Source: an uncultured Thermus sp. (GTDB lineage Bacteria > Deinococcota > Deinococci > Deinococcales > Thermaceae). From it: a stretch of 64,000 bases of DNA. Each line of letters opens with the position of its first letter. Positions within the stretch are counted from its first letter, which is position 1. Below, in pieces: positions 10,096 through 40,492 of this stretch. Location: assembly GCA_947085095.1 (NCBI GenBank), contig CAMTVD010000013.1, forward strand, positions 61,360 to 125,359. The letters run 5' to 3'. A program made the translations under genes and the position numbers. The notes under the pieces were generated by a model, which was not told where the DNA came from, ran no database searches, and saw nothing but the letters and a program-made list of their open reading frames with translations.

Positions 10096-10102
10096 GTGTC
10101 CC
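10089..10102. promoter_or_regulatory. GGGAC-N4-GTCCC palindromic operator overlapping paaR -35
   Basis: GGGACAAGTGTCCC; same motif family at 54337, 62206/62220, 63728/63742, 63796. Confidence 0.5.
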
Positions 10103-10113
10103 AAGTCACCTTT

Positions 10114-10445: not shown

Positions 10446-12416
10446 TCATGCGTAGTCCCCACACGCGCGGGGATAGTTCAACATTTGCTTGGGGGAAGCG
10501 CTTTCCCCGAGGGTTCTTCCCTCACCCGAGGCGATAGGCTCGGGGTCAGCCACGCTCAAGGGAAGGGCGCTGGGATGGTAGAGGCCCCCCGCTACCTTGG
10601 TAAGCCAATAGACCTGGGTCACGGCTTCTTCCAAGCGCAAGTCTCCATGGATCACTTCCACACTCAGGGCCTTGGGCCAGCCGGGGTGACCAGGGTGGGC
10701 GTGAAGGTAGGCCAGCTCCGGGAGGGCCCGGAAGTAGGTGCCCAAGGGTAAGACCTTTTTGGAGAACCGGAGGCGGGTTGACTTGATTCGGATTAAGGGC
10801 GACCGTACCCAGCTGAGCACCTCTTCTAGGGCCTCGTCGCTCCCACGGAAGTGGACCACCAACGGGTAGGGAAGCGTTTTTTGTGGCAGGTTCCAGCCTT
10901 GGTCGGTGAGCTGCCCCTCCGGAGAGAGGAGCCTCCAGAAGAAGCCATCCCGGGTGCGAACGATGCCGAGCACGTGGTGGGTGAGTCCCTCCAGCAAAAA
11001 AGGGATACCGCCCGCCTTGCGGGCCAGGCTGTAGGCCAGCTCGTGCACATGCGGTCGTTCCAGGAGGGTGGAAGGATTAACCCACTTTACGATCCGGGCG
11101 GAAATCTCCAGGGTCGCGTGCAACTGTTGGAGGACTTTCCGGGCCACGTCTTCCGGTGCGAGGAGAAGCGCGATGTCCGCAGGAAGCGGGCCCCCTTCCA
11201 CGGCTTTGCCTGTCTTGGGATCGTAGATCAAAGGGGGAACCTGGAGCTTCAAAGAAGCCCCCATTCTCTCCCAGATCTCTAGGAAGCTTGGCAAAGAAGG
11301 AGTCAAGGCGAGAAGGCGTTTCCCCTCAGAGGACTTTTTAAGTTGGTTTTGATCCACAAAATGGCGAAGGAGGAGCTGCCGAGCGCTCAGAGAGACTTCT
11401 TCCTTTGCGTAGGCAGAACGGCTTTCCCGCCATTCCGGTTCTGCCCGAGGCTTGAATTTGATATGAGGTTGGGTGTGGCCTGCAGGGCGTTTTAGAAAAA
11501 CGGAGATTTCCATGTAGGGAAAGGCGAGGTGGAAGGTAACCTTCCCCGGAGGGCGGAAGAACCCTTTTTGGAGCACCTCCTTTGGCTCGCGGCCCAAACC
11601 TTGGCCCATCCGAAGGGCGCCCTGGCTAACGGAAGCCAGGTGCTCCTGGGGGATGCGCCAAGGCCTAGGGTCCAGTACCCCTTGGAAGATCAGGCGCACC
11701 TTGTCCTCGAGGTCCTTAAACCTGAACTGGCTTTCCCAAAAGGCGTCCTGGGAGAGTTGGCGAAGACCCGAGCCGCTGGCGGGCGGAGCTTCTATGTGCG
11801 AAAGGACTTGGGGATGAAGGAGGAGGTGGGCATCGGGGGGAGCTTTTTCCAGGGGGACGCTCCTCCTCTGGTGGGGGACCAGGGCTTTAAGGGGGTGGCT
11901 TTCCTGCAAGGCCTTGATGTGCTGGAGCACCTCGCTTCCCAGCTCGGCTAGGGTGGCCTTCGTGAGCGCTCGCTTTTCCAAGTCCACCAGGGCGAAGTAG
12001 GCCTCCCCGAGGCGCACCGCCTCCACCCAGTATCCCTGGTGTAGGCGCACCTCCAGGGGAATCTTAGGGCCAAGAGCAAGGTAGCCCATTATCTCCACGT
12101 AGTCCTCGGGGTCAAACCACACCCCGCCGTTGCGGTAGAAGCCCTTCCGGGTGAGAAAGCGGTGGAGGTAGCCGTTGAAGGCCTTCGTCGCTTCCTTTGC
12201 CCCTTTCGGCGTGAGCGTTCCAAGCAAGGGGGCGCGGGCCTGGGGGTCCTCCACCCCGTAGACCCAGACCTCTTGCCCACGGATCTCGGCGAAGAAGCCC
12301 TCCGCCCGCAGGTAGGCCAAAAACTTCTGGGGCGCTCGGTGCCGGTACCGGTAGACCCGGAGGGCATCCGGGCTGACGAGAAGGGGAAAGAGGTTGACCT
12401 CGTACAACGGGCTCAC
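10446..12416 (-). CDS. Divergent prokaryotic Argonaute-like protein (N-L1-reduced PAZ-L2-MID-PIWI), predicted catalytically inactive
   Basis: Colinear motif matches to recalled TtAgo: VNLFPL~LNRFAL; YFALVDLEKRAL~FLLEVDPAYRIL; EPKEVLQKGFFRP~KPADALRVGFYRA; LARKAGG~LLAKAG; GTYF..GWPKALSVE..GDLRLEEAVTQVYWLTK..PSALPLSV~GLYV..GTPRPLKLV..GDTPLEALAHQIFHLTR..PRLPAPL. Start GTG 12416 overlaps upstream TGA (GTGA). Confidence 0.75.
   Translation of the reverse strand: MSPLYEVNLFPLLVSPDALRVYRYRHRAPQKFLAYLRAEGFFAEIRGQEVWVYGVEDPQARAPLLGTLTPKGAKEATKAFNGYLHRFLTRKGFYRNGGVWFDPEDYVEIMGYLALGPKIPLEVRLHQGYWVEAVRLGEAYFALVDLEKRALTKATLAELGSEVLQHIKALQESHPLKALVPHQRRSVPLEKAPPDAHLLLHPQVLSHIEAPPASGSGLRQLSQDAFWESQFRFKDLEDKVRLIFQGVLDPRPWRIPQEHLASVSQGALRMGQGLGREPKEVLQKGFFRPPGKVTFHLAFPYMEISVFLKRPAGHTQPHIKFKPRAEPEWRESRSAYAKEEVSLSARQLLLRHFVDQNQLKKSSEGKRLLALTPSLPSFLEIWERMGASLKLQVPPLIYDPKTGKAVEGGPLPADIALLLAPEDVARKVLQQLHATLEISARIVKWVNPSTLLERPHVHELAYSLARKAGGIPFLLEGLTHHVLGIVRTRDGFFWRLLSPEGQLTDQGWNLPQKTLPYPLVVHFRGSDEALEEVLSWVRSPLIRIKSTRLRFSKKVLPLGTYFRALPELAYLHAHPGHPGWPKALSVEVIHGDLRLEEAVTQVYWLTKVAGGLYHPSALPLSVADPEPIASGEGRTLGESASPKQMLNYPRACGDYA
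10452..10480 (+). CRISPR. Solitary degenerate type I-E-like CRISPR repeat (B), preceded by a leader-like stretch
   Basis: GTAGTCCCCACACGCGCGGGGATAGTTCA; 21/29 identical to repeat A in opposite orientation; upstream 10370-10451 is comparatively AT-rich with TTGACA at 10373. Confidence 0.65.
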
Positions 12417-14404
12417 ACTCCCAGAAATGGACTGGGTTCGCCCCAGTATCCGACCCAAAGCTGTTCCCGGGCGCGGGAAAAGGCCACGTAGAGGAGGTTG
12501 CGGTCCTGTTCCACCAAAGCTTCCCGGTCCCGCTCCGAGGGAGCCTTCCTCAGCAAGGACTCTAGGGGGAAGAGGTTGTGGTTGACTCCATATACGGCCA
12601 CCGCTCGGAACTCCAGGCCCTTAGCGCTGTGGACTGTCCCCACCCGCACCCCTTCCCCTTGCTCCTCTTTATCGGAAAGGAGGGTGGCCTGAATACCTTG
12701 GGCCTCCAAGGTATCCCGGAGGTGTCTGGCCAGGTCCCACACCCTTGCCAGCACCCCAACCTCCTCGGGCGGAACTCCAAAGTCCAGGTGGCTTCTCACC
12801 CAAGCCACCAGATCAGCGGTACAGCTTTCCTGGGTACCGAAGCCTCGGATCGTGGGCTTAGGACCCCGGAGAAGGGAAAGGACCTCCCGCATCTCCTCCT
12901 CCACCTCAGGGGGGAGGACGCCTTCGGCGGCCTGGGCGATCTCCCGGGTGGTGCGGTAGTTCACCTTGAGGCGGATGGAGCGGCCCCGGACCTCGAGGCC
13001 CAAGGCCTGCCAGGAAAGGGGCCCCCGGTAGATCCGCTGGGCGGGGTCCAGGGCGAAGAAGAGGTTGTCCGGACCCTCCTCCACCAGGGCGCGCAGGAAG
13101 AGGAGCTCCGCGGGACCCAGGTCCTGGGCCTCGTCCACCACCGCCGCCCGGAAGCGGGGAAGCTCGCCCGCTTCCCCTTTGGCCCGCAAGCGGTGCAGGA
13201 GCCGGTTGAAGGTGAGAAGCCCCTCAGCCTCCATCCTTTCCCAGACCTTTTGAAAGACATCAAAGAGCCTGCGCCGCTCCCTAGCGGTGAGGGGTACGCC
13301 CCGGCCGCTACGGGGGAAGCTTTTGTATAGGTCCCACTCGTATAAACCAAAGCTATCCACAAAAGCAAACTCCGAGCGCAGGAACTCGGGCTCGTGGCCC
13401 GTGGTTTCCCCGGCCTCCAGGAGCCAGGGTAGGTAGGTCTCCTCCTTGGCGATCCTGGCTGGGCCAAGCTGCTGGCTGTGGAGCCGCACGGCGAGGCTGT
13501 GGAGGTTTTCCACGTGGAGGTTCGGGGGCACCTCACCCAGGAGAAGGCGGAGCCCCGTGCGGAGGCGGGCTACCAGGAAGCGGTTGAAGGAGGTAAGGAG
13601 GAGGGGTGCCTCAGGGTAGTGCCGGGCCAAGGTGGCCGCCCGATGGAGGGCCACCACGGTCTTGCCGGTGCCCGCGGGGCCCGTTACCCGGGCAGGCCCC
13701 TGAAAGTTGCGTTCCACCGCCTCCCGCTGGGCAGGGTGGAGAAAAACCATCCACCGTTCCCATGGGTAGGCTAGGGCCCGCCGGAGCTCCTCCAAATCGC
13801 GGATAAACTGCAAGTGTTGCCGGGTAAGGGGGTGTCGGGCCAGGTCCTCCAGGGTGCTCACCTTGGGGGGCGGCACCACCATCTTGCCCGCATATAGGTC
13901 CAGGAGCCTCTCCTGGACATCCTGGGGCAAGCCGGAAAGAAGCTCCTCCAATTCCTCCTCGGCTTCCACGAGGCGAAGAGGCTTGATGTAGGAGGGGGGC
14001 ACCCCCAGGTCCAGGAGGTAGTCTTCAGGGTAGTTGAGGAGGGGGCGGATTTCCCGGGATACCACCCTCTTCTCTTCCACCACGCGGAAAATCTGAAGGG
14101 TACCCGTCCTGGGGTGGACCTCCACCTGGTGGTTCTCGGCCCAGCGGTAGGCGTCGTCGTGGTGGCCCACGTAGGCCAAAATGAACCCCACTTCTGGGTG
14201 CTCGTAAAGGATGATGCGGAGGTCCATGTTGACGTAGAGGGACCAGAACCCCTTGGTCTTAAGTTTTTCCAGCTTGTGCATTTTTAAGCTGGGATGCCTG
14301 GGATTCTGGAGGAAGAGGAAGACGGTTTCCCGCACCCGGTCCTGCTCTTCCCTGGTGAGCTTTGTAAGGCTTTTATAAAAAGAGTCCGCGATGGCCACAC
14401 TCAT
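12413..14404 (-). CDS. UvrD/SF1 helicase with N-terminal RelE/ParE-like toxin domain
   Basis: N-term F-x-KSL-x-KL...NP-x-HPSL-x2-HKL...WS-x2-V-x2-DLRII...YVGHHD-x-AY; helicase motifs GPAGTGKT, VDEAQD, DPAQRIY, NYRTT, TVHSAKGLEF, LLYVAFSRAR; AAGGGGG RBS before ATG 14404. Confidence 0.85.
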   Translation of the reverse strand: MSVAIADSFYKSLTKLTREEQDRVRETVFLFLQNPRHPSLKMHKLEKLKTKGFWSLYVNMDLRIILYEHPEVGFILAYVGHHDDAYRWAENHQVEVHPRTGTLQIFRVVEEKRVVSREIRPLLNYPEDYLLDLGVPPSYIKPLRLVEAEEELEELLSGLPQDVQERLLDLYAGKMVVPPPKVSTLEDLARHPLTRQHLQFIRDLEELRRALAYPWERWMVFLHPAQREAVERNFQGPARVTGPAGTGKTVVALHRAATLARHYPEAPLLLTSFNRFLVARLRTGLRLLLGEVPPNLHVENLHSLAVRLHSQQLGPARIAKEETYLPWLLEAGETTGHEPEFLRSEFAFVDSFGLYEWDLYKSFPRSGRGVPLTARERRRLFDVFQKVWERMEAEGLLTFNRLLHRLRAKGEAGELPRFRAAVVDEAQDLGPAELLFLRALVEEGPDNLFFALDPAQRIYRGPLSWQALGLEVRGRSIRLKVNYRTTREIAQAAEGVLPPEVEEEMREVLSLLRGPKPTIRGFGTQESCTADLVAWVRSHLDFGVPPEEVGVLARVWDLARHLRDTLEAQGIQATLLSDKEEQGEGVRVGTVHSAKGLEFRAVAVYGVNHNLFPLESLLRKAPSERDREALVEQDRNLLYVAFSRAREQLWVGYWGEPSPFLGV

Positions 14405-14414
14405 GGACACCCCC

Positions 14415-14654
14415 TTACCCCTTCAAGTATTCCGCCACCATCTCCGGGGACGTGTGGGGTTTGACCACGAGGCCGAACCCCTCGAGGCCCTGGGGCACCA
14501 GGCGCTTCGTTCCCCAGCGGGCGATACTCTGCCCCACGACCTTTCCTCCTTGGACCAGATCCTCCCCCACCTCGTCCGGCGGGGGAAGCCCCAGGCGGCG
14601 AAGCCCCTCAAGGAGCGGCCGGTAGGCGGCATCCACGAGTTCCAAGGCCTCCTC
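14415..14654 (-). pseudogene. Detached C-terminal ~80-aa domain of the upstream DEAH helicase (in frame after a TGA)
   Basis: Frame continues ...SRED*EEALELVDAAYRPLL...; homologous to the C-terminal domain of the BrxL-like protein, where the TGA position is Trp. Confidence 0.7.
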
Positions 14655-17600
14655 TCAATCCTCCCGGGACCCAGGCCGAAGAAGCTGGACCAGCTCGGCG
14701 AAGGCCTCGTCCCAGGGTTCCCCGTCCCGGAAGACCACGTAGGGAACGCCGAGAAGGGTGAGGCGCTGGCGGAGTTCCCGGTCCTTTTGGGCCCGTTCGG
14801 GGTCTTCGTGGGAGGGACCGTCCACGTAGACCCCCACCCCCCGGTCGTAGAAGAAGTCCAGGCGGGTGAAGGTTTGGCCCACCTCGAGGGTGTACTGGGC
14901 CCGCTCCGGGAGGGGAACCCCGCGGCGATGGCACTCCAAGAGCCAGCGCCGTTCCAGTTCGCTTTGGCACGCCTCCAGCAGCCTCGCCAGACGGGGGTCC
15001 TCCCCGTCCGGTTGCGTTTCCGTGAACTGGGCCCCCAGGAGCTGGCGGAAGAGGGGCAGGACCAGGTTCCGGTCCAAATGGGGGTGGTCCGCCTGGTTCC
15101 CGTAGTCCATGAGGCAGTCGTAGCAGGCCCGCTCGCACCCCTCCTCGCCTTGGTGCATGAGGCGGAGGGCGGTTTCCACCAGCTCGTGGAAGGGGTGGGG
15201 CTCCTCCAGCGAAGGCCACTCCGCCAGGGCCGCTAGGGCCCCCAGCCCCCCCTCCTGTCCCTCCACCAGGACCACCCGGTAGGGGATGCGGGGCTCTGGG
15301 GTGGGTTGGAGGAAGCCGAAGAGCTCCTCCTCGGAAAGCTCCAAGGTGATGAGGGCGGCCTTGCGGAAGGCGGCCAGAAGGCTCTTGTAAAAGGCCGTGG
15401 TCTGTTGCCTATCCAGCTCCGGGGGGAAGGGCACCTCCAGGGCCACCAGGTCGCTTTCCGCGCGGGCCTCGAGCACCAACCCCCCACGCAGATCCTCCTC
15501 GGTGCCCCCTTGGGGGCAGCGGCCGGACCCGCCCTCCCTCCAGGGATGCTCCTTGAGCTCCTTTTGGGTGAGGAGGAAGCGGCGGCAACGGCGGCAGTAG
15601 ACGAAGCCGGGGCCCACGGGGAGGTCGTCCTCCTCGTCCAAGAACCAGGCCCTGAGGCCCTGGTTGAGGGCCACCACCTCGGCGTTGTGCTCGTAGAGGA
15701 GGCGGACGTCCCGGTAGGCCAGGACCCTGGGGGACCTCCTCCGCCAGTGCCACTCCACCTGGTACCCCAGGCGGACCCGGTCCTCCTCCTCGCTCCCGAT
15801 CCGCCGCCGGGGGAGGCCCAAAAGGACGGGGGGCGGGAGGAGGCGCAAGGAGGGGGGGAGCTCGGCCAGGTTCCTCCCGCACGAGGGGCAGGTGCTGGCC
15901 CCTTCCGCCTCCTCCACGTGGCCGCAGGCGCACCGCTTGGCGGGACGGAAGGAGTCCTCCTTGGGCACGAAGGCCAGGCGCTCCAGGTGGTAGCGGCGGG
16001 CCCCGTAGTAGACGCTGTTCCCGGGGGCCAGCTCCGTGAGGGCGATGAAGATGGGGCGCTCCAGGCGGCGCACCTCGCCCCCGGGGGTGTGAAGCTCGGC
16101 CCAGGTGGTGGCCCGGCCAAAGGCGTAGTTGGGGAGGAAGCCCCGGCTTTCCAAGTAGTCGCGGAAGTCCATCTCCACCAGGTACCGGCGTTCCCGGTCC
16201 GCCCGCTCCACCTCGGCCCTGACCTCGTCCCGGTGGTCGTGCTTGGGCCCCATATACCCGAGGCGCGTGGCGTACTCCGTGTACCGCTTTTGGGCGTCCA
16301 GGTAGGCCTCGCGCCAGGGGGAAAGCTCGGCGTCCATTTCCGCCACGAACCCGTCCACGGTCCCGGCGATGAGGTCCTCGTTGAGCCAGGGAAAGAGGGC
16401 CATCTCCCGGGCGAAGGCCTCCTTCACCGCCTTGAGCGTGGCCTCCCGGTAGCGGGCAAGCCTTTCCTCTAGGTCCTTTCGGAAGCGGGGGAGGAGGGGG
16501 TAGAAGTGGACCTGGTCCTCGTAGTCCACCGCCAGGCCCACCTTCCCGGGTAGGGAGAAGCCATCCTGGGCCAGGACCTCGAGGACCAGCGCCCGGATGT
16601 GGGCCTTGATGAGCCTCGGGTTGTCCAGGAGGAAGCGGGGGGCCTGGATGCTGCCCCGGACCATCTTTTGCGGGAAGCGGTAGAAGTACTGGTCGTGCCC
16701 CTGGGCCCCGGCGAAGGCCTGGATCAGGGCGGGCTGGCCCTTCCGCCCCGCCCGGCCCGAGCGCTGGGCGTAGCTGGCGGGGGAAGGGGGGATGTTGCGC
16801 AGGTAGACGGAGGAAAGGGCCCCGATGTCAATGCCCATCTCCAGGGTGGGGGTGGCCACCAGGACGCTCAAGGGGTCTTGGGGGTTGCGGAAGCGCTCCT
16901 CCAGCCTCCGCCTCTCCTCCCCGGGAACCTGGCCGGAGTGGGAGCGGGCCTCGAGGGCCAGGGGGAAGACCCGCCTCTGGTAAAGCTCCCGGTAGAAGGG
17001 GTGGACCTCCCGCTCCTCCAGGGCCTGGGCGGGGTACTCGGGGGAAAGGCGGAGGGCGTAGAGGTGGCCGGTGTAGGTGCTCCGGGGGCAGAAGAGGAAG
17101 CGCCCCTCGGTCTTCTCCAGGAGAATGGCCGTGGGGCTTATGGCCAGGCCCACCACCTTCTCCCGGCCCCGGGCGGGAAACTCCCAGGGGACGAGGACCC
17201 TTTGCTCCTTCAGGGCCCGGACCAGCCGCTTGAGGAGGGCCTGGGCCTCCTGCCGGGGCAGGAGGAGGGCCCGCATGGTCCAGGCCTCAAAGGGGCTCGG
17301 CCTGCGCTCGCCGTAAAGCCCGAAGGTGTGGCCGAACCGGGGCGCGCGGAGGGCTTTGCTCTCCAGGAGGATGGCCGCCCCCACTGGGTCCACGAAGACC
17401 TCCTGGGGGAAGGCGGCCAGGGGCTCTTCCACCTCGCTGCGGAAGGCGTAGGGGTTGAGGAGGGGGTGGTGGATGGCCCCGCGGCGGCGCATGAGGTCCA
17501 AAAGACCCACCAGGTAGTCCCGGCGCACCTCCAAGGGAGCGCTCACCCCCTGCCAGAGGTCCTCGTCCTTTAGGAGCTCCTCCAGGCGGCGGTAGGTGTA

Positions 17601-19934: not shown

Positions 19935-20020
19935 CACCCATAGTTTATGGGCGGCTTCTGGGTTGCGGTGGTCATGCATCACACGAGGGGGGAGGCGCGT
20001 ATTGCCATACTGGACAAGCT

Positions 20021-23034: not shown

Positions 23035-23073
23035 TCCCTAGTTCTGGCCCCTTAGAAGGCAGAGGAGGAGGGC

Positions 23074-25401: not shown

Positions 25402-25404
25402 AGC

Positions 25405-29442: not shown

Positions 29443-29575
29443 AGGGCTCACCTTATAGGGATGGGCATGAGAACCCCCAGACCAAAGCCCCTGGGGCGGG
29501 TATTCTCGGATGAAGGGGAATGCGCGCGGCCAGGGGCGGTATCTGGAGCCAACATGGCTTAACCACCTGCCCTCG

Positions 29576-32332
<2,757 letters not shown>

Positions 32333-32339
32333 GGTGAAA

Positions 32340-33941
32340 TCATAAGCCCAGGTAGCGCCGCACCGCGTCCAAGGGGGTGGAAGGGTCCACCTCCAGGCCC
32401 TCCCCTCCGCTTCCTTTGGGGAAGAGGCGCTTCCCACCCCAGCGGGCCAGGCTCTGGATCATGGTGCCGTCCCCAAGCTCCACGTCCTCGGGGCCCTCGG
32501 TGGGCGGGGGTACCCCGGCTTCCCTCAGGGCCTGGAAGAGAGGGTGGTAGGCCTCGTCTAAAAGGGGAAAGAGTTCCTCCCAGGGGATTCCCAGGCTTGT
32601 GGCCCCCTTCCCCAGGGTGAGCGTACGGGGCGGGAACTCCTCGCTGTTGTAGTGGCTCATCTCCTGGTAGACCCGCTCCCGGAGCTCGAGGGCCAGCTGG
32701 GCTAGCTCCTGAGCCCGTCCCTCGGGCCAGTCCCGGTGGGGAAAGAGAAGTTTGAGGAGGGCAGACACCCACTTGCGCACCGCCCGCACGTCCCGTTGCG
32801 TGAGGCCCTTGGGGAGGTCCAGGGCAGGATCAAAGCCCAGGGGCCTCAGCCTGCGGAAGGCGGCGCTCAGGTAGTCCACCACTAAGCCCGGCCCCTCGTA
32901 GAGGAGATCGGGGGTGATCTTGGGGAACTCGTGTCCGGGAAGAATGCCGTGGATACGGTCCAGAAAAGCCGTGTCCCCCCGGAGGCCTTGGGGCAGGACC
33001 CGGGTCACCGGAACCTCTGGGCGGTCGGTGTTTCCCAGAAAGACCAAGGAGGCCTCCGAGGTAAGGTTCCGCCCTCCACGGCTGAACTGGCCGGACTCCA
33101 TGTAGTCCTTGAGGATGGAGAGGATGGAGGGATCTTCCCAGGCGGTGTGGGCCACCTCGTCAAAGACGAGCACCTGGTAGGTGGGGATGAGACCAGGCTT
33201 GCGGGTGAGCTGGTTGTAAAAGAGCACCGCGGGGGTCACCTTTCCCCCCGAGATCACAAAGGCCTCGGGGGAGAGGTTTCTGAGGAGGTAGGTCTTCCCC
33301 GTCTGCCTGGGCCCCAGCTCCATCACGTGCAGATTGGGCTCCACCAAAGGGGCCAGGCGGGCCAGGTAGAGGAGTTGTTGCCTCGGGCTGAGGGCCTGGG
33401 GATTGAAGCCCACGGAAGCGAGAAGGAAGTGGGTCCACTCTTCCTCGGTGAAGAGGCTTCGCCCCTTGAGGTACGGGTCCAAGGTGGTGAGGCTCGCTTG
33501 GAAAGGGATGAACTGCTTTACCCGGACCCGCCCCCGCCCCCCTTCGTAAGCGAGCTCCAGGGTTCCCCACAGGCCGTAAAGTACCCCCGGGTGCTGCTCG
33601 GGGAGGTGGTAGTCCACCTCAGCCGGGTACTCCCCCAGGCTGGGAAGGTGGGCGCGGTGGGCTCCGGTGTCCAGGTCCACCCGGACCTCGAGGCGGTCAA
33701 TAATGACCACGCGGCCCTGGCGAAGCAGCCGGTCCTTCAGCCACTCCTGGTGGCCTGGGCCAATGTAGCGTTCCTCCAAGAGGCGGCGCACTTTGTCCAC
33801 CGCCTCGGGGGTTCCGCCGGCCTTGGCCAGAAGGTACTCCACCACAAACCGGGGAACTCGGTGGAACGAGGTCTCCTGAAGCAGGCGCTTTTCCACCACC
33901 TGACCCGGGAAAGCTTGAAATATCTTTTCCTTGAAGCTCAC
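32340..33941 (-). CDS. brxL: BrxL-type (MCM-like AAA+) ATPase lacking the Lon protease domain
   Basis: VP-x-FVVEYLL, ELGPRQTGKTY, ISGG-x-VT-x-A-x-LF, FDEV, LKDYMESG-x-FSRG, DTAFLDRIHG-x-LPG, RD-x2-AV, LLKLLFP, ALE-x-R-x-RV; no Lon GxSAG motif. Confidence 0.82.
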   Translation of the reverse strand: MSFKEKIFQAFPGQVVEKRLLQETSFHRVPRFVVEYLLAKAGGTPEAVDKVRRLLEERYIGPGHQEWLKDRLLRQGRVVIIDRLEVRVDLDTGAHRAHLPSLGEYPAEVDYHLPEQHPGVLYGLWGTLELAYEGGRGRVRVKQFIPFQASLTTLDPYLKGRSLFTEEEWTHFLLASVGFNPQALSPRQQLLYLARLAPLVEPNLHVMELGPRQTGKTYLLRNLSPEAFVISGGKVTPAVLFYNQLTRKPGLIPTYQVLVFDEVAHTAWEDPSILSILKDYMESGQFSRGGRNLTSEASLVFLGNTDRPEVPVTRVLPQGLRGDTAFLDRIHGILPGHEFPKITPDLLYEGPGLVVDYLSAAFRRLRPLGFDPALDLPKGLTQRDVRAVRKWVSALLKLLFPHRDWPEGRAQELAQLALELRERVYQEMSHYNSEEFPPRTLTLGKGATSLGIPWEELFPLLDEAYHPLFQALREAGVPPPTEGPEDVELGDGTMIQSLARWGGKRLFPKGSGGEGLEVDPSTPLDAVRRYLGL

Positions 33942-33951
33942 ATTCCCTCCT

Positions 33952-36027
33952 TCAGGCTAGCAACTCGTCCAACAGGGGGTTGTCGCGACGGATCCCGGGC
34001 TCGGAACCCGGGCCCGGGGGCGGTAGGGGAGAGGTGGGAGGGGGTCCCTCCGAGGTGCGAGCTTCATGGAGGGAGGGGGCAAAATCCGCCAGAAGGTGCT
34101 CGGGATAGAGAGGGTAGACCATGCGCATAAGAACGCTCTCTCCGGGAAACCAAGGCTCGGCCTCGTAGGACTCACCCCATCGGCGGCCCGAGGTGGGGCC
34201 CAACACGTAGGCGAACTGGTGGTGCTCCGGCCAGTTCCTCACCAGGACCCTAGGGGCTGCCGCTGCTACCAGGGTGGACCAGAGCTCTTCTGGGATCTCC
34301 CTCAGGGGCCTTGGTCCAAGCCTCTCCGCCAGACGCTCGGCCGTCTCGCGAAGGGTTTCCTTAACCTCGCCCACATCCCCATCCCAAAAAGCCTCCAATA
34401 CCCCTTCCTGAACCAGCTCAAAGGCTGCGGCCCGGACCTGGGGATGATCCGAGGGCAGGTCCTGGGACACGCGCAGCACGAGGGGGTTCTCCTCCCGGGA
34501 TGCGGAGGGAGGGGTGAAGGACTCTAGCTGGCTGAGGGCCTGCTGCGCCCGGTTCCGCTCCCGTTTGAGGGCTTCAAGGTGCTCTTGGACGAGGCTCAAC
34601 TCCTTGAGGAGGAGGAGAAAGTGGACCTGGCGCTCGGTAAGCTCTTGCTCCGCCTCTTGGGCTTCCTGGAGAAGGTGCCAAGCCTTATCGCAAAGCCGTT
34701 TACGCAGATGGACGGTTTCCTCGGAAAGGGATAGGGGCTTTCTCCAGAAAAGGCGCCGCCACCAGGGAAGGGGCGGTTCCTTGTGAGGCAGGTTCTCGTT
34801 CCACCGCCCATGGTTTTCTTTGAACTCCTCCTCCAAGGAGCGAAGCCTTTGGGTGGCCTCTTTGGCCTTGGGGTCCCTTTCCAAGAAGAACTGCGTATCA
34901 CCGTCTTCCAGGGCTTTTCGCACCTCCTCCAGCTCGGACTCTAGCTTCTGGATCTCCCCTTCAAGGCTCGCTCCCGTCAAGCCCCTGCGTTCACGCCGGG
35001 CCTTTAGTCTGCGCAATCGGGCCCATTTGTCTGCGGTCCCAGCGGTTTGGTTCAAGATCTCGAGAATCTCGTTTTTTCGGGCGCTGGTCTTGCTCAAAGC
35101 CTTATCCAGCTCCTCCAAGGTGGCGACGAGATTGGGGACACCGCCCAGGAGGGCTTTGCGCCCCAGGTCAAAGGGGGTCTGGGCCTCGAGGGGAAGAAGA
35201 AGGCTTTCCACAGCCTCGGCAGCGGCATCTTGCAGCTTCTCCCGGTGAGCCTGCCAGGCCTCCCCTAGCCACGGAGGGTGAGCTTCGCAGCTCTTTCTCT
35301 CGGGCAAAGGGGGCGGCTGGCTCGCATGGGGGGCTAGGGCGGCCCGGAGAGCCTCAGCGCTGGGGGTAGGGACCCGGGGCGATGGCCCTAACCGGACCCC
35401 CTGGATGGCCTCCCAGATTTTGGGCACGAGGATAGCGGGGTCTGGCTGCTCCAGCTCCAGCCGGGCGATGCCAAGCCCCATCCAGTCCCTACCCCTGGAG
35501 GGCTGTAAGGGGGCTTGGGTTAGGACCAGGGCCTCTACGAAGTGCTGGATCCAGGTCTTTAAGTGCTCCTCCTTGGGAAGGCGCAGGCCGTTCCGGGACC
35601 AGAGCGAAAGGGGCCAGACCCGGGTGGGGATAGGGTGGCCCGGATCTGGGGGAAGGGCCTCGAGGGCTTGCAAGCTCTCTGGGCCCCGCACAAACAGAAC
35701 CAGGTGAATCCGGACCTCCATTCCTGCCCAAGGGTCCTCCTTTAAGACGGCTTCCGCTCCCTTGAGGTGCGGGAATAGCTGATCCGGGTCGGCGGGAGCC
35801 AAGACCACTAGCGTGAGGGCGGGGTCCAGGTCCAATCCGGCCCGCTTGAGTTCCAGTAGGCGGGATTGGTCCAAAAGCGCCTGTAGAGAAGATACCAGCG
35901 CCTCGGGGTGGGTGACCTCTAAGGCCAGGATCTTCTTACCCAGACGGGTTCGCCAAAGCGGCTCCACCTCCCCCACTAGGCTTTGGGCGAGCCCGGGAAA
36001 GGCGACCACCAGCGTGGGGTGCACCAT
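33952..36027 (-). CDS. Coiled-coil protein, probable degenerate paralogue of the adjacent tubulin-like protein
   Basis: Long heptad-rich centre; flanking segments match the neighbour in order (PTRVWPLSLWSRNG~FDMVFLVNRQNRAG; WMGLGIARLELE~YASFGAAELRFE; LVAAAAPRV~LDAISAPAW); no GGGTGSG motif. Confidence 0.6.
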   Translation of the reverse strand: MVHPTLVVAFPGLAQSLVGEVEPLWRTRLGKKILALEVTHPEALVSSLQALLDQSRLLELKRAGLDLDPALTLVVLAPADPDQLFPHLKGAEAVLKEDPWAGMEVRIHLVLFVRGPESLQALEALPPDPGHPIPTRVWPLSLWSRNGLRLPKEEHLKTWIQHFVEALVLTQAPLQPSRGRDWMGLGIARLELEQPDPAILVPKIWEAIQGVRLGPSPRVPTPSAEALRAALAPHASQPPPLPERKSCEAHPPWLGEAWQAHREKLQDAAAEAVESLLLPLEAQTPFDLGRKALLGGVPNLVATLEELDKALSKTSARKNEILEILNQTAGTADKWARLRRLKARRERRGLTGASLEGEIQKLESELEEVRKALEDGDTQFFLERDPKAKEATQRLRSLEEEFKENHGRWNENLPHKEPPLPWWRRLFWRKPLSLSEETVHLRKRLCDKAWHLLQEAQEAEQELTERQVHFLLLLKELSLVQEHLEALKRERNRAQQALSQLESFTPPSASREENPLVLRVSQDLPSDHPQVRAAAFELVQEGVLEAFWDGDVGEVKETLRETAERLAERLGPRPLREIPEELWSTLVAAAAPRVLVRNWPEHHQFAYVLGPTSGRRWGESYEAEPWFPGESVLMRMVYPLYPEHLLADFAPSLHEARTSEGPPPTSPLPPPGPGSEPGIRRDNPLLDELLA

Positions 36028-36030
36028 GGC

Positions 36031-38781
36031 CTAAAGGGTGGGGAAGTGGTCCTCGCCCGCATCTGGGCGCAGGGTCTGGACCTCTTTTAGCCACGCCTCC
36101 AGGACCTCCAGCTCCCTCCGGAAGACGTTCTTATCCTCCTCGTTGAAAGCGGGGTCCTCCAGGAGCCCTTTTCGCTTAGCAATGACCTCTGGCAATCCTG
36201 CCTTGAGCTCCTCCAGCTTGGCCTTGTTGCGGCGGCGTTCCGCTTCGGCCTTCTTTACCTGACTCTCTAGCTCTTTGAAGGAGAAGAAATCCTTCCGCAA
36301 CACCTCAAAGGCGCTAGCCGCCAAGTTCCCCAGAATGTGCCTCCTGGGCGTGCCCATCCGCCTGTCCAAGAAACCGTAGCCGTCTTCCTCCTTGGTGAGA
36401 AGGCCTAGAGCCCGGGCTTTGGTCCAGACGTGGGCCACTTCCTGCTCGGAGGGCTCGGGAAAGAGGTCCCCCATCCCGTTTTCCCACTCCCGGTGGATGT
36501 GGAAGCTGCGGTCTTGGCTTAGGGTCTCGTACTTTTCCCGGTAGATGTGAATCCCCCGCAGGACGAAAGCGGGAATGGAAGCCTCAATCTTGTAAAAGAG
36601 CACCCGTTTTCCGTCCCCGGTGGACACCCTTTGCAGGCGCATGCGGTCGTGGAGGTTGGAAGCGAAGAGGTTGATCACTTCCTCGCTGTCCACCAGGGGA
36701 TCGCTCCGGTCCGTGGCATCCTTTAGCCCTAGAATGTGCACCTGCTCCCTGTACCCAAGGCCGGGGTTGGAAACCCAGGCGTCCTCGTAGTCCCAAGCCG
36801 GGGCAGATATGGCGTCCAGCTCCCGGAAAGTGCGCTCCACCGCTTCCCAGAGATCCGGGTCCCTTTCCTTTTGTGCCAGCGCCCACCCCAACCATTCGGC
36901 CAGGGTGAACGTGGGCTCCTTGGGCAGGGCTTCCCTTATGGCCTGCTCCGGGTCCTTGAGAAGGGCCTCGAGGTCCCAGGCCACGGCATGGGGTGCGGCC
37001 CCAAGGACGCGATCCTCTTGGTCTACATAGGACGGAGGAAGGGTCAGGGTGAAGGGCTGGGCGTCCCTGCTTCCCATCTGGGGTTCCGCCTCTTGGCGAG
37101 CCAGCAAGTCGTGCAGGCGTTGCTTGAGGGAGTTGATGTCCCGGAGAAGGCCCTCAATCGCGGCAACCCAGTTCCCTGCGGCTTCAGCGCGCCCTATCTG
37201 GGTGCCCGTGGTTATAGCATTTTCAAAAAGACTTGACACCGTCTTCCTGGTCAGCACTTCGCGTTGAGATGACCGGTTAATAAGCATCGGTAAACCAGGG
37301 CGGTCATTAACTTCTCTTCTCAACCTGTCCCGCTGCTGATCCAATTTGCGTTCCAGCTCCTGGGCCCCCTCAACAAGCTTTTTCTGAAGTTCTCTTGCCT
37401 GTTGCAGAAGGTCCTCGAGGGCCCTCGTTACCCCTGCCAGACCCGTCTGCCGCATGCGAATGGCCTGGGCAACCTCCTCCTTCAATAGAGAAGTCACTTC
37501 TGATAGAGGGACCGCCCGGAGAACCCCTTCCTTGGCTTCCCCGAGAAGGCGTTCGGCATCGTTAAGGACTCCCGGGAGGAGCGCTCTGTCTTCTGCCGGC
37601 GAGCTTGAAACTGGAGGAGTACCGGGTTCTACCCCAGGGTCAAACGCTTCAAGTTCTTTCAGCTTGGCTAGGGCGTTGCTAGCGCGCCAGTCATAGTCCA
37701 AGTCCAGCAAATTCTTTACGTAGTCTTCCCTTGCCCTTTTCAAATACGTTCCCACAAGACGCCCCGGTTCAAAGCGGAGCTCTGCCGCACCAAAGCTGGC
37801 ATAGTGGGCGGTCTTCCCGTAGTACTTCCCCTTCTGCTCGTTCAGCTGGTGGACGATGTTGTCAAAGGTGTCCGCCTGCTCCTTTCCCAAGGGGCCGCCC
37901 AAGAGGTAGAGGCCGAGTCCCAGGAGCTCCATGAGATCGTCCACCTCGTTGAAAGTTTTGCCTGCCCGGTTTTGCCTGTTTACCAGGAAAACCATATCAA
38001 AGGGCTTCTTGCGGATTTCAATGTCTTTGCCCCCAAAGCGGTAGCGGTGCGTTCCCTGGAGGCTCATGAAGTGATCCAGCTCCTTGAGGGCAGCGTAAGC
38101 GTTGGCCTCCACGTTCTGGGTACCCGGACGGTTGACGTAGATATCGGGAAGGAGAAAGTAGCCAAATAGCTGGTCTTCATCCTTCATGAGATGGCGGAGA
38201 ACGAAGGCCACGTCCAAAAAGATGCCCGAACCCGTACCCCCGGCCAAGGACCCCACCAGGGCCACTGTGAGGTGGGGAGAAAAGGGCTCGTAGACATTGG
38301 CCAGGTCCGGTCGTGGCCGCTCGTCGCGGAAGTCCCTAGCCAAGGCTAGCAGGTCCCTGAGGTTTTCGTAAACGGTGGTGGCGTTGGCAAAAAGGGCCAA
38401 CCGCCCCAAGGCCCGGATCTGACCTGCGCCCGAGAGGATGTTGGCCTTGAGGTCGGCCTTGGGTGGGAACCACTCGCGGATCTCGTCGTGGACCTGGGGA
38501 AGGAGACTGGCGCCCCTGGCCTCAATCTGGAGGATTTCGTCGGCCCTCAAGCGGACGGGTTTGCTACCCTGGGGGGTCTTGGCCTCCAGGTGGTCGGTGT
38601 TAGCGCTGGTGGTATCAATAAGCAGATACTTGACCAGAGGGGGCTCCTCCCCAAAGGTTTCCAGGAAGCGCTTTTTGGCGTGAAGCAAGGCCTTTTTGCC
38701 CGTGCCTCCGAGGCCGATCAGCACGGTGCGCTTAAGCTTGCGGATGGCCGGCCCAGTGCGCTTCGGAGCGTTTTCGTTCAT
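36031..38781 (-). CDS. Tubulin/FtsZ-like GTPase (FtsZl1 / Tubulin_2 family) with long coiled-coil C-terminus
   Basis: LIGLGGTG, IDT, GAGQIRALGR, tubulin signature GSLAGGTGSG, NAYAALKEL; GGAGG RBS. Confidence 0.88.
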   Translation of the reverse strand: MNENAPKRTGPAIRKLKRTVLIGLGGTGKKALLHAKKRFLETFGEEPPLVKYLLIDTTSANTDHLEAKTPQGSKPVRLRADEILQIEARGASLLPQVHDEIREWFPPKADLKANILSGAGQIRALGRLALFANATTVYENLRDLLALARDFRDERPRPDLANVYEPFSPHLTVALVGSLAGGTGSGIFLDVAFVLRHLMKDEDQLFGYFLLPDIYVNRPGTQNVEANAYAALKELDHFMSLQGTHRYRFGGKDIEIRKKPFDMVFLVNRQNRAGKTFNEVDDLMELLGLGLYLLGGPLGKEQADTFDNIVHQLNEQKGKYYGKTAHYASFGAAELRFEPGRLVGTYLKRAREDYVKNLLDLDYDWRASNALAKLKELEAFDPGVEPGTPPVSSSPAEDRALLPGVLNDAERLLGEAKEGVLRAVPLSEVTSLLKEEVAQAIRMRQTGLAGVTRALEDLLQQARELQKKLVEGAQELERKLDQQRDRLRREVNDRPGLPMLINRSSQREVLTRKTVSSLFENAITTGTQIGRAEAAGNWVAAIEGLLRDINSLKQRLHDLLARQEAEPQMGSRDAQPFTLTLPPSYVDQEDRVLGAAPHAVAWDLEALLKDPEQAIREALPKEPTFTLAEWLGWALAQKERDPDLWEAVERTFRELDAISAPAWDYEDAWVSNPGLGYREQVHILGLKDATDRSDPLVDSEEVINLFASNLHDRMRLQRVSTGDGKRVLFYKIEASIPAFVLRGIHIYREKYETLSQDRSFHIHREWENGMGDLFPEPSEQEVAHVWTKARALGLLTKEEDGYGFLDRRMGTPRRHILGNLAASAFEVLRKDFFSFKELESQVKKAEAERRRNKAKLEELKAGLPEVIAKRKGLLEDPAFNEEDKNVFRRELEVLEAWLKEVQTLRPDAGEDHFPTL

Positions 38782-38785
38782 TTCC

Positions 38786-40492
38786 TTACCTCCTGTTTAG
38801 GCTCAAGGAGCCCAACTCCTTCTTGCCGAAGGCATCTTTGAAAGTATAGGTTGTTTTCCAATCCAGAGGCTCACCCCTGGAATCCTCGAGGTTAACCGGG
38901 ATTCTTCCTTCTTCGTAAACCGAAACATGGGGTGGCAGTTTCAAGAGGTAGGGTCTTCCGTTCTTTTGGCCTATCTCCACCCCCTGCAAGGTCTCTTCAC
39001 GAAAAACTTGGCCAACGTCTACCCGGCCCCGAAGGCTTGCTTTCTGTTCCTGGCATCCCTTTTCCGGTGAGCTCACGAACGTGGCCGTAGCCCATGGCTG
39101 TTGCGAGCGCCATAGCCACCAAAGAAGCCCGAGAAGCAAGAGCAAAAGGAGGAGCGCTAGCCACCAGAACCTATTTAGCCAGTCCCATAGGGTCATGGGC
39201 TGGCTTACGGGGGGCAGGGTTTCTGGTGCCTGGACGACGCTACCCTGAGGGGCTACCACCTCTAGCCTTGGCGCTTGCGTTACCCCAGCGCCCAGCCCGG
39301 TGTTTTTAAGCGCTATGGTTAGCTCTTCTCCGGCCTGCACCTGTGCGGGCCCTGGTTGGCCGTTGAGGGTGGCCTCGAGGCCCTTCGGAGTCTTCACGTT
39401 GACTGTGACAGCTTCCTTCGCCCAAGCGTTGCCCTGGACTCTGTAGCTCAGGGTAGCCGATTCCCCTGGGGAAAGTTCCAGCTTTTCCGGAACAGCCACA
39501 GGAACAAGGGTGTATTCCCCAGGAGGATGAAAGGCGAACCGGACCGGAATCACCTGTGGTCGCACCACGGTGTTGCTGGGGGCGTTCACGCAAAGCCATC
39601 CTTCGTACGTTCCCGGTGCCAAGCTTTCCCCGTTTCTAAGACGGAAGGATAGGGTAACGCTGTCCCTTGCGGGGAGAGCTTGAGGAGATATCTGCAAGAA
39701 GGCCCCAGCTTGCTCTAGCGCCGGGATTTCCGTAGCTAAGGAAAGGTTGCTCGCAGCCCCCTTGGTTTCTATCTGGATATCACGCTCAGCCTGCCCTTTA
39801 CCCCAGAGATTGCCCAGATCTAAGCGGGCGGGTCTGAGGACCACCTCGCTTAGCGTTGGGACTTCGTTTGGCGGAGCCTCGAGGACCCGGGCATTTGGCA
39901 CCGCAGCGAGGGAGCCCAGCACCTCTTTCGGGGCCGATATGCCGAGGCTAATGTAGAACAACCAGTCATAGGGGCCCCGCCTCAGCTGATAGCGCTTGGT
40001 GACGTCGTGGATGGTGTAGGGACCAGGATCGTTATCTCTTCCGTCAGTGAAGACGTACACGCTGTAGGCTTCGTTGGGGCGCCGGAGCTTTTCTAGGCGA
40101 TCGAGGACGCTAAGAAGTGTCCTGTAAAGGTACGTTTGAGAACCCGTGGCCTTTAGAGACTCCAGATACTGCAGGAAGGCCTCTTTTTCCTCAGGAACAG
40201 AGAAGGTGCGGCTGACTCCTGGGCCTGCATCAAAAGGCTGAACCGTGATCCGGCTTCCGGGAGGAATCTGTTCAGCAAACCGTTTGAGTTCCCTTTTGAC
40301 GTGGGGGAAGATAACCCGGCCTTTCCCATCACCCAAACCCATCATGGAAGCCGAGGTGTCCAGGATGAACACGTAATGGAAACGCTCTGGGACCACTGCT
40401 GGCTGAGGTGAGGCGGGCCCTTTAGGAGGGCAGGGTGCAGCGAGGCCCGCCAAGCTTAGGCCGACAACCATAGCCATGAGAACTGGCTTCAT
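38786..40492 (-). CDS. Membrane-anchored von Willebrand factor A (vWA) domain protein
   Basis: Signal peptide MKPVLMAMVVGLSLAGLA; MIDAS DTSAS...T...VFTDG; beta-rich Ig-like middle; TM WWLALLLLLLLLGLLWWLW; ~100-aa cytoplasmic tail; GGAGG RBS. Confidence 0.85.
   Translation of the reverse strand: MKPVLMAMVVGLSLAGLAAPCPPKGPASPQPAVVPERFHYVFILDTSASMMGLGDGKGRVIFPHVKRELKRFAEQIPPGSRITVQPFDAGPGVSRTFSVPEEKEAFLQYLESLKATGSQTYLYRTLLSVLDRLEKLRRPNEAYSVYVFTDGRDNDPGPYTIHDVTKRYQLRRGPYDWLFYISLGISAPKEVLGSLAAVPNARVLEAPPNEVPTLSEVVLRPARLDLGNLWGKGQAERDIQIETKGAASNLSLATEIPALEQAGAFLQISPQALPARDSVTLSFRLRNGESLAPGTYEGWLCVNAPSNTVVRPQVIPVRFAFHPPGEYTLVPVAVPEKLELSPGESATLSYRVQGNAWAKEAVTVNVKTPKGLEATLNGQPGPAQVQAGEELTIALKNTGLGAGVTQAPRLEVVAPQGSVVQAPETLPPVSQPMTLWDWLNRFWWLALLLLLLLLGLLWWLWRSQQPWATATFVSSPEKGCQEQKASLRGRVDVGQVFREETLQGVEIGQKNGRPYLLKLPPHVSVYEEGRIPVNLEDSRGEPLDWKTTYTFKDAFGKKELGSLSLNRR

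Follow-up and report, generated by a model that had tools for sequence, protein, structure and literature searches.

The question raised by this locus is whether a run of membrane, motor and nuclease-type genes in a Thermus genome encodes one defence system or several. The locus (termed the island) covers positions 10446-40492 of a 64,000-nucleotide stretch of DNA from an uncultured Thermus sp. (assembly GCA_947085095.1, contig CAMTVD010000013.1, positions 61,360 to 125,359 of the forward strand). The whole stretch is termed the window and has the address G000:C13:61360-125359 in our genome set, in which G000 is the source genome (2.08 Mb, 41 contigs). The island holds an ARMADA-like gene set, a PsyrTA-like gene pair, an Argonaute-like gene and a four-gene cassette for a vWA protein, a tubulin-like GTPase, a 691-amino acid (aa) protein and a short BrxL. 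An earlier reading of the letters alone (the sequence-only reading) had proposed either one multi-layer system or a stack of co-mobilised systems, and had named no known system for the combination. In the present analysis, six of the 12 genes were assigned to ARMADA (four) and PsyrTA (two); of the two proposals, the stack was kept and the single multi-layer system was considered unlikely. We regard the island as a co-inherited stack of four separable defence units, with a probability of about 0.72, because further Thermaceae have the sub-modules in joint arrangements and every one of them is also found by itself.

Gene content and recurrence of the island

For comparison, 68 Thermaceae genomes (G000 included) and 31 other genomes of the genus were used; G-labels denote compared genomes. 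The cassette lies directly before ArmA in G000, G001, G010, G015 and G052, and in G002 with ArmD between BrxL and ArmA, and this joining of cassette and ARMADA spans 6 genomes and 3 genera. The gene train on the plasmid pMESIL01 comprises, in this order, genes for a WYL protein, an insertion sequence (IS), vWA, the tubulin-like protein, a 686-aa protein, a further IS and BrxL. It continues with helicase-related, methylase, 1838-aa helicase and 673-aa "3'-5' exonuclease" genes, with gaps of 5-10 nucleotides (nt) in the ARMADA part. The sub-modules were thus found joined outside this strain, in further Thermaceae genomes and on pMESIL01, a co-occurrence that the sequence-only reading had left to such a comparison.

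ARMADA genes without the cassette were found in G054, G044 and G062 and as a distant trio in G066. In G057, which has no tubulin gene, one contig carries BrxL (from residue 46), ArmA and ArmB, and ArmC and ArmD lie on a different one. In G013, G014, G023 and G066 the cassette is followed after BrxL by the ArmD-like RelE-UvrD gene alone, without ArmABC. ArmD-like genes of at least 54% identity occur in 14 of the 68 genomes, 12 of which also have the tubulin gene. The composite is passed on as a block, and each unit is able to stand alone; functional coupling of the units is possible. The stack would persist because its units complement each other, and not as one obligatory machine. The distant trio of G066 (L118, G066:C38, about 5987-17417) comprises SNF2 (37% identity), methylase (41%) and YprA-type helicase (32-45%) genes, and the same genome holds its cassette and ArmD-like gene elsewhere than the trio.

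Between 10446 and 40492, 12 large open reading frames (ORFs) and one cut-off domain were listed, given here in the direction of the minus strand:

38786-40492, minus strand: vWA membrane protein, 568 aa, first cassette gene (Pfam VWA_2 PF13519, VWA PF00092)
36031-38781, minus strand: FtsZl1-type tubulin-like GTPase, 916 aa (PF13809 Tubulin_2, E 7.7e-63)
33952-36027, minus strand: 691-aa protein, always between the tubulin and BrxL genes
32340-33941, minus strand: short BrxL, 533 aa (PF20442 BrxL_N and PF13337 BrxL_ATPase; TIGR02688 395 bits, above cut-off)
29576-32437, minus strand: ArmA-like Swi2/Snf2 helicase (DrmD/BrxHII/RapA-like), probable start ATG 32332
25405-29637, minus strand: ArmB-like N6-adenine DNA methyltransferase, up to 1410 aa (Eco57I, N6_Mtase, MmeI_Mtase)
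23074-25401, plus strand: second UvrD-type helicase (UvrD775), 775 aa (Pfam UvrD families; PADLOC GajB E 4e-19)
22009-23034, plus strand: PsyrA, DprA-like (PDLC03927 E 9.8e-61; DNA_processg_A)
20021-22012, plus strand: PsyrT, RecQ-like helicase with phosphoribosyltransferase (PDLC03928 E 6.1e-239, residues 4-661 of 663)
14655-19982, minus strand: ArmC-like YprA/DruE-type helicase, 1775 aa (DEAD and Helicase_C; DruE1 E 9e-97)
14413-14654, minus strand: severed tail domain of 79 codons, continuing in frame after the ArmC TGA
12413-14410, minus strand: ArmD-like helicase, 665 aa (RelE/YoeB-fold domain, helical linker, GajB-like UvrD core)
10446-12458, minus strand: long Argonaute-like protein by predicted fold, 670-aa ORF; about 656 aa from GTG 12416 (10446-12416)

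Nine of these ORFs lie on the minus strand, as the sequence-only reading had counted; its gene list was incomplete in that the three plus-strand ORFs (20021-25401) had been missed. Its count of five helicase-type motors stood, though not the gene set behind the count. The five SF1/SF2 helicases are SNF2, the DUF1998 helicase, two UvrD-type proteins and the RecQ-like PsyrT, and further motors are the BrxL AAA+ ATPase and the tubulin GTPase. Its gaps of 3-10 nt from vWA to SNF2 were confirmed: the genes from vWA through tubulin and the 691-aa protein to BrxL are separated by 4, 3 and 10 nt, and BrxL from SNF2 by about 7 nt if ATG 32332 is the SNF2 start, which was assumed because the alignments of relatives begin there. 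The domain calls for vWA, tubulin, SNF2, N6-adenine methyltransferase and DUF1998 helicase were reproduced by Pfam and PADLOC matches. Also in agreement, integrase, Cas, PglZ, BrxC and PLD had no model match in the 12 large-ORF proteins (small gap ORFs were outside the scan).

ARMADA genes, their cargo slot and an Argonaute-like protein

ARMADA is described as a DISARM-related system in which ArmA is a BrxHII/RapA-like Swi2/Snf2 helicase, and ArmB a PglX-like methylase; ArmC belongs to the YprA family of helicases, has DruE of Druantia as its nearest relative and ends in a Vsr nuclease, and Type II is marked by the order A-B-C-D with ArmD (Bell et al. 2025, bioRxiv 10.1101/2025.09.15.676423, PMC12458937). 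Protection of E. coli by ARMADA is reported as non-abortive (Bell et al. 2025, PMC12458937), and for armABCD of enterohaemorrhagic E. coli (EHEC) OI-172 all four genes are reported as needed (mBio 2026, PMC13463889). To judge from their sequences, the SNF2, methylase, DUF1998 helicase and RelE-UvrD genes of the island match ARMADA feature by feature and in the published order. By analogy, this first unit (ArmA-ArmD) would methylate host DNA and directly attack unmodified incoming DNA, with survival of the cell.

ArmA was matched by the PADLOC models DrmD (E 3e-116) and BrxHII (E 1.4e-77) and by RapA (E 3.7e-54), and contains SNF2-rel_dom and Helicase_C with DEAH at residue 261. For ArmB, PADLOC DrmMI matched (E 2.9e-105) and PglX matches were weak; methylase motifs I and IV are present, with DPAMGSG at residue 550 and NPPW at residue 808, and the start is uncertain, with the alignment of relatives beginning at residues 47-68. 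The C-terminal third of ArmB has a guanine-plus-cytosine (GC) content of about 0.60 (window 25000-27000), versus 0.67-0.69 for the N-terminal part and SNF2 (27000-32000), a step that could reflect a swapped target-recognition region. In E. coli, armB is reported as the most variable gene (mBio 2026, PMC13463889).

ArmC is DruE-like over its whole length. Its middle and C-terminal parts matched DruE models only and had no DrmA or DrmB match, and DrmA models were confined to residues 1021-1103. A DEVH box and Cys pairs are present, and MZB/DUF1998 lies at about residues 1537-1624 (15111-15374; PF09369, E 1.2e-6). The C-terminal region (14658-15110), with the pattern ...TRFDFFY...VYVDGPPH..., looks Vsr/DUF559-like by eye.

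For ArmD, the N-terminal 92 or so residues (14135-14410) were modelled from 8 sequences (predicted local distance difference test score, pLDDT, 76). The top Foldseek matches of this model were all RelE/YoeB/YafQ toxins, the best being T. thermophilus RelE (2khe, E 2e-4, TMt 0.69). Together with the UvrD families of Pfam and PADLOC GajB (E 7.9e-24) in the core, this bears out the RelE-UvrD call of the sequence-only reading. R65, H83, H84, D85 and Y88 are invariant, and in the ESM Atlas the N-terminus matched unnamed clusters only. Over residues 5-665, ArmD shares 31% identity with a 704-aa helicase, the last of four genes of an ARMADA II-type locus on an E. coli IncY plasmid; genes for a helicase, a methylase and a helicase of 2113 aa precede it. 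On the T. thermophilus plasmid NZ_AP025610.1, WP_275974862.1 lies directly upstream of an ArmD orthologue of 80.8% identity and is entered as 'ARMADA Type I helicase' in Table S1 of Bell et al. (2025, PMC12458937). Among the matches listed in that table, 26 of 26 from Thermus and 9 of 21 from Meiothermus stand in ARMADA Type I rows, and the other 12 listed Meiothermus matches in DISARM-like, Druantia Type I-like or MrfAB-like rows (PMC12458937).

Two neighbourhoods of related loci were recorded alongside. On NZ_AP025610.1 (L123), an NYN-domain gene lies between armA and armB (8473-9186), a type III-A CRISPR-Cas locus follows the system behind IS630 (23441-32502), and the annotation lists a transposase and no tubulin or vWA gene at the cassette end. 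A TROVE (Ro60-like) protein of about 500 aa is encoded just upstream of ARMADA at L104:8691-10181 (G054) and L105:212-1714 (G057), which could mean that an insertion site is shared or that ARMADA is associated with a gene of RNA quality control.

The likeness to class 1 DISARM that the sequence-only reading had noted holds as to kind, given a DrmD-like SNF2 protein, a DrmMI-like methylase and a helicase plus DUF1998 content that equals DrmA plus DrmB. Membership does not hold: helicase and DUF1998 form one 1775-aa DruE-like protein in place of separate DrmA and DrmB, and there is no PLD protein DrmC. From Druantia the island differs in that DruE models match but no other Dru model (DruA-D, DruM/F/G, DruH) does among the island proteins. 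From published ARMADA it differs in four respects, namely the pairing of a Type I-clade helicase with ArmD in a Type II-like order, a 5.4-kb opposite-strand cargo between armB and armC, the loss of the last ArmC domain to a stop codon, and the four-gene vWA/tubulin/BrxL cassette directly upstream together with the Argonaute-like gene downstream. Neither the cassette nor an Argonaute was found by word search in the main text of Bell et al. or in the supplements searched, one of these in part (PMC12458937).

The order A-B-C-D is kept in the island and is contiguous in G001, G010, G015 and pMESIL01. The cargo that interrupts armB-armC in the island is our second unit, which consists of PsyrTA and a UvrD-type helicase on the opposite strand in a variable slot. 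The RecQ-like protein has the Pfam domains DEAD, Helicase_C, RecQ_Zn_bind and Pribosyltran, and the DprA-like gene lies immediately downstream with an overlap of 4 nt. By full-length matches to the models PDLC03928 and PDLC03927, the pair is PsyrTA (RqlHI). PsyrTA is a helicase-toxin/antitoxin defence pair. The likeness lies in the RecQ-like helicase with phosphoribosyltransferase followed by a DprA-like protein in overlapping genes; different here are the nesting in the operon of another system, the opposite strand and the UvrD-type helicase behind the pair. The slot also holds PsyrTA in G002 and G052, and G044 retains a remnant of the pair there.

The UvrD775 gene converges on the methylase gene, the two stop codons being 3 nt apart, and G052 has an identical arrangement of methylase end, UvrD775 and PsyrA at 86-96% DNA identity. 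UvrD775 matches occur in 16 of the 68 genomes, mostly elsewhere in the genome; the core (residues 213-696) is conserved in these 16, and the N-terminal 210 residues match in G052 only. No domain was assigned to the N-terminal 225 residues, and from its sequence the protein looks like a family with exchangeable N-terminal domains.

The armB-armC distance was compared in 8 genomes. G001 has the shortest, at 52 nt; in G015 and G010 it is about 1.0-1.2 kb (a homologous ORF of 306 or 311 aa), followed by 1.4 kb in G062, 2.1 kb in G054 (the Argonaute gene), 3.6 kb in G044 (Argonaute and the PsyrA remnant), 5.1 kb in G002 (PsyrTA and helix-turn-helix genes) and 5.4 kb in the island. The 306- and 311-aa slot ORFs (L024:11219-12139 in G015, L026:12826-13761 in G010) are 58% identical, with low GC at third codon positions and no Pfam family. 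Between armB and armC, ARMADA thus offers a cargo site into which further defence genes have been taken up more than once (PsyrTA, Argonaute, unknown ORFs).

The third unit is the 670-aa ORF next to armD, the product of which is, according to its structural model, an Argonaute by fold. Its likely GTG start at 12416 overlaps the ArmD stop codon as GTGA, which would couple the two genes in translation. Homologues were found in 11 cases only among 5.8 billion clusters. No Pfam model matched, PADLOC models of prokaryotic Argonautes reached E 1e-4 only, and there was no match in the plasmid collection and none by sequence in the PDB; a profile search gave at best E 0.5 to the C-terminus of CpAgo. 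For the fold, a model from 10 sequences (pLDDT 74) was compared by Foldseek, with 248 matches at E<=0.001 that included MpAgo (5i4a, E 3.2e-24) and TtAgo (4n76, E 9.2e-18). Full-length matches, AaAgo and PIWI proteins among them, had TM scores of about 0.4-0.5 and cover the four-domain fold (N, PAZ, MID, PIWI). The earlier Argonaute call, specified here as a long Argonaute, was thus upheld by fold.

For the active site, hhalign against a profile of TtAgo orthologues aligned a C-terminal motif only (D638 to TtAgo D660, probability 8.7%). D478, E512, D546 and D660 are invariant in the Thermus TtAgo orthologues, and we take these positions to be the catalytic tetrad. Read by eye from a sequence alignment, and not from a structural superposition, the RDG position is HF[R/M/L]G and the first Asp position an invariant Ala-Pro; because of these readings, the protein is probably catalytically dead. 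For the guide-based targeting suggested by the sequence-only reading, the support is the predicted fold, and the catalytic motifs of the protein look lost. DdmDE of Vibrio cholerae reportedly pairs an inactive long prokaryotic Argonaute with a helicase/nuclease partner. Similar to this, the island has an Argonaute fold with apparently lost catalytic residues beside large helicase/nuclease genes; different are the far greater sequence divergence and the ARMADA genes as partners. By this analogy, the dead Argonaute may recruit helicases to guide-matched DNA.

Argonaute-like genes matched in 8 of the 68 genomes. The 7 substantial copies all lie beside ARMADA genes, next to ArmD in G000, G010, G052, G055 and G059 and between ArmB and ArmC in G044 and G054; the eighth match (G040) is a 46-residue remnant. 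That the gene recurs next to ARMADA in two different places speaks against pure chance, but does not make the two an obligatory pair. G000 had no match of the canonical TtAgo type, which 10 of the 31 other genomes of the genus have.

The vWA/tubulin/BrxL cassette and the shared tail

The fourth unit is the co-directional cassette upstream of ArmA, which would itself be a defence-related module. The sequence-only reading had set FtsZl1 and vWA apart as a separate module and had referred BrxL to BREX. Neither assignment was retained, as the four genes form one cassette to which BrxL belongs, and no other BREX gene is present.

The vWA protein has the metal ion-dependent adhesion site (MIDAS) motif DTSAS at residue 45. 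By eye, its sequence has an N-terminal signal-like hydrophobic segment, beta-rich repeats, a single hydrophobic helix at about residues 437-461 and a C-terminal part of about 105 residues. Its orthologues adjoin the tubulin gene in all loci that extend that far. The tubulin-like protein has GLGGTG at residue 23 and GGTGSG at residue 181, followed by a long C-terminal part rich in coiled coils that is common to 24 clusters. A full-length homologue, P0030, is 51% identical in the C-terminal part and carries the source label Fervidobacterium sp., which could be a transfer between thermophiles or a binning error.

The 691-aa protein had no family in Pfam, PADLOC or NCBIfam. By hhalign, its residues 390-528 align with tubulin residues 468-589 (probability 73%, E 3.1e-5), and among named ESM Atlas clusters the closest (scores 0.89 and 0.87) are assigned PF13809. 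No match to the tubulin GTPase domain was found, the similarity being C-terminal. From its sequence, it is probably a degenerate tubulin-like paralogue without nucleotide motifs.

In BrxL, an AAA+ ATPase of the MCM-like kind, the Walker A motif lies at residue 210 and the Walker B motif at residue 257. The protein has BrxL_N and BrxL_ATPase and no Lon domain, as the call of a protease-less BrxL had stated; a 79-residue tail domain (residues 455-531) is found there instead. In BREX, BrxL is described with a Lon or HKD domain in type 1 and without C-terminal extension in type 4 (Rakesh and Krishnan 2025). The island protein resembles these in its N-terminal DNA-binding region, its MCM-like AAA+ ATPase and its intact Walker motifs, and resembles type 4 in lacking Lon. 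It differs in a tail shared with ArmC and in its tubulin and vWA partners. Since BrxA, BrxB, BrxC, PglX and PglZ are missing from the island and BrxL is the only BREX component matched, BrxL is here a part of the vWA/tubulin cassette, and its origin is not BREX.

Tubulin matches were found in 15 of the 68 Thermaceae genomes (13 are orthologues) and BrxL matches in 22, of which 15 have at least 60% identity; across these genomes, the two genes share their contigs and keep a constant spacing. The order vWA, tubulin, 691-aa protein, BrxL was found by tblastn in G001, G002, G006, G013, G014, G023, G034 and G066, and in G010, G015 and G052 as far as the contigs go. Within the genus, 2 of the 31 genomes besides G000 have the cassette. 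In a second, Deinococcus-like family, four full-length tubulin orthologues are 45-47% identical; three of the genomes (G069, G073 and G113) have the cassette, with a BrxL of 444-469 aa without the tail, and G184 has the first three genes only. In G069, the genes after BrxL encode an Mrr-type nuclease and a further vWA protein; in G113 they are unknown genes and those of a DEAD helicase and of a WYL regulator. Apart from these and the four genomes with the ArmD-like gene alone, BrxL is followed by ARMADA. Outside the phylum, BrxL relatives (13 loci, 37-46% identity) had no other island protein nearby, in a search by two peptide patterns only that was not exhaustive. A tubulin/vWA/BrxL defence system was not found described in the literature searched.

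Within this unit, the vWA protein would expose its domain outside the membrane, and its cytoplasmic end, the tubulin GTPase and the degenerate partner may build a GTP-dependent membrane scaffold. The scaffold would position or trigger BrxL, an MCM-like ring predicted to act on DNA there, and the effector would be the ArmD-type RelE-UvrD protein in Thermaceae and other nucleases in other lineages.

That the cassette serves membrane remodelling or DNA partition on megaplasmids, and shares a variable region with defence genes without being one of them, appears very unlikely to us. TubZ-type relatives of tubulin segregate plasmids, and the named cassette copies are on megaplasmids, one beside a RepA gene. 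For FtsZl1/vWA operons, membrane remodelling has been proposed, and the vWA, FtsZl1 and 681-aa trio of M. silvanus is entered in Additional file 5 of that work (Makarova and Koonin 2010, PMC2875224). The island trio has the same Tubulin_2/FtsZl1 protein beside a vWA protein with intact MIDAS and membrane segments, but it is followed by a short BrxL and nuclease/helicase genes, and the 2010 listing ends before BrxL. Against a role outside defence, BrxL is otherwise known from BREX-type defence only, and downstream of the cassette stands either ARMADA, the gene of a RelE-UvrD helicase, that of an Mrr-type nuclease or that of a DEAD helicase together with WYL. The patchy distribution (13 of 68 Thermaceae, 2 of 31 other genomes of the genus) and the IS elements and WYL regulators that flank the cassette speak in the same sense.

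The 79-residue tail links BrxL to ArmC: the tail codons behind the island ArmC are 49% identical to BrxL residues 455-531, and in relatives the tail is fused to ArmC in open frames of 1838-1851 aa. The domain had 15 matches among 1.84 billion representatives, carried by ArmC-like, BrxL-like and small proteins; one distant carrier has DUF559 before the tail. With these 15 representatives only and no Pfam match, a widespread known domain was rejected. An origin as a duplicated, inactivated copy of the Vsr-like region of ArmC was not supported (hhalign probability 1.7%). A tail-bearing gene adjoins ArmD in 12 resolved loci, and the tail is absent in 6 loci without ArmD (G006, G069, G073, G113, G044 and G062). 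The exception is G054, which has a tail-bearing ArmC with a transposase as neighbour and lacks ArmD altogether. This suggests that the tail serves ArmD; the genomes are kin, so the pattern carries no statistical claim. A complex prediction of the N-terminal 225 residues of ArmD with the tail scored 0.00, which in a run without controls is uninformative either way.

The same pattern could be taken for one integrated machine, in which cassette, ARMADA and Argonaute are subunits, and sensing at the envelope and discrimination by methylation would both feed one RelE-UvrD effector through the BrxL/ArmC tail. Besides the tail, such a machine would account for the co-directional genes with gaps of 3-10 nt (vWA to ArmD in pMESIL01, vWA to SNF2 in the island) and for a BrxL-ArmA junction that is identical in 6-7 genomes of 3 genera. 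It would also account for the ArmD-like gene that follows the cassette in four genomes without ArmABC, and for the plasmid records of the 691-aa protein gene, 4 of 4 of which have an ArmD homologue 2-3 kb away. We consider it unlikely. Each unit occurs alone, G054 keeps the tail without ArmD, an opposite-strand insertion splits the gene train in the island, and co-occurrence among kin is far from many independent trials. In addition, ARMADA II is reported to function in E. coli without any cassette (PMC12458937, PMC13463889).

On top of the stack reading, we put forward a speculative and rather improbable arrangement. The cassette would act against phages or plasmids as a front end: its scaffold, anchored in the membrane and driven by GTP, would load a ring of BrxL onto DNA as this enters the cell, and the ArmD effector would be shared with ARMADA. 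BrxL and ArmC would dock or license ArmD through the 79-residue domain, and the dead Argonaute would be a third, guide-based input. If true, this would be the first immune function for a prokaryotic tubulin family and a case of separate sensors that converge on a common effector.

Flanks, counter-evidence and significance

The island lies between paa genes and a nar region, as the sequence-only reading had placed it. The left side holds a PaaA-type gene and the gene of a TetR-type regulator. To the right, narK, narK, narI, narH and narG follow in this order (NarG 1196 aa; the narK genes are two major facilitator superfamily transporters), and Crp/GAF regulators accompany this nitrate-respiration cluster. 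The GC content of the island is 0.56-0.70, in blocks, and that of the left flank 0.68-0.70. Neither a tRNA nor an Rfam family was found, and there were no boundary repeats of note.

The paaR-paaA side is kept in 30 of the 31 other genomes of the genus, and the other side has no synteny; the right flank was missing in the four closest genomes tried and was matched to about 80% on a plasmid-like contig of G051. Specifically, window positions 40606-49533 (PaaD/SufT-like gene, protoglobin, DUF2249 and nar genes) are 80-85% identical to this 143-kb contig, and the left-flank paa genes are chromosomal in relatives. The contig thus unites chromosome-like and plasmid-like DNA, either by integration or by an assembly join. 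The clean empty site that the sequence-only reading had expected from close Thermus genomes was not found among the compared genomes, because the window ends at the contig end. The inner gene order of the island is supported by relatives.

Several points weigh against the stack reading. G000 appears to be metagenome-derived, and the outer context of the island could be misassembled. Related genomes are kin, so repeated synteny amounts to few independent events, and one integrated system would also be compatible with the close same-strand junctions and with the tail that BrxL and ArmC have in common. Phage protection by ARMADA is known from E. coli systems only, the Thermaceae loci being assigned by sequence alone. 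The assignment itself has weak points: ArmA reached 424.7 bits with NCBIfam DrmD, under the cut-off of 610; no Vsr nuclease family of Pfam matched the window ArmC, and 2 of 8 relatives matched PF18741 weakly (E 0.04). The type in Thermaceae is mixed, with a Type I-clade helicase and a Type II-like order with ArmD.

Decay is a further point of this kind. An in-frame TGA (window 14655-14657, minus strand) ends ArmC and severs its last 79-residue domain, and four relatives have TGG (Trp) at that codon (REGWEEAL, EESWEEAL, GLSWEEAL, PDLWAEAL). Contigs from a pair of runs within one study, one of which may be the source run, carry the TGA; relatives in a DNA run and an RNA run, each from a further study, have TGG. 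As the TGA occurs in two runs, it is therefore a true strain-level nonsense change and no one-off error. In a metatranscriptome run, contigs of a 90-95% alike relative extend over the ArmC end and the tail; contigs show neither transcription nor strand. Stops were also found in ArmC and ArmD of G057, and stops or frame breaks in the Argonaute copies of G052, G010 and G055. Given these decayed copies, the stack may be partly non-functional.

ARMADA, PsyrTA, FtsZl1/vWA operons and short BrxL proteins are each already known. The repeated joining of cassette and ARMADA, the ArmD-type gene with the cassette alone, the shared tail and the ARMADA-embedded Argonaute clade were not found in the literature searched, which took in some supplementary tables in part. 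The analysis uncovers a clade of proteins, predicted to be Argonautes by fold, that sequence models had missed. FtsZl1 tubulins have been without assigned function since 2010. One FtsZl1 branch is now tied, in two Deinococcota families, to a BREX-type ATPase and interchangeable nuclease/helicase genes, and in Thermaceae to the ARMADA effector gene. A defence role of the FtsZl1 cassette is thereby directly testable in Thermus, a harmless thermophile that is genetically tractable.

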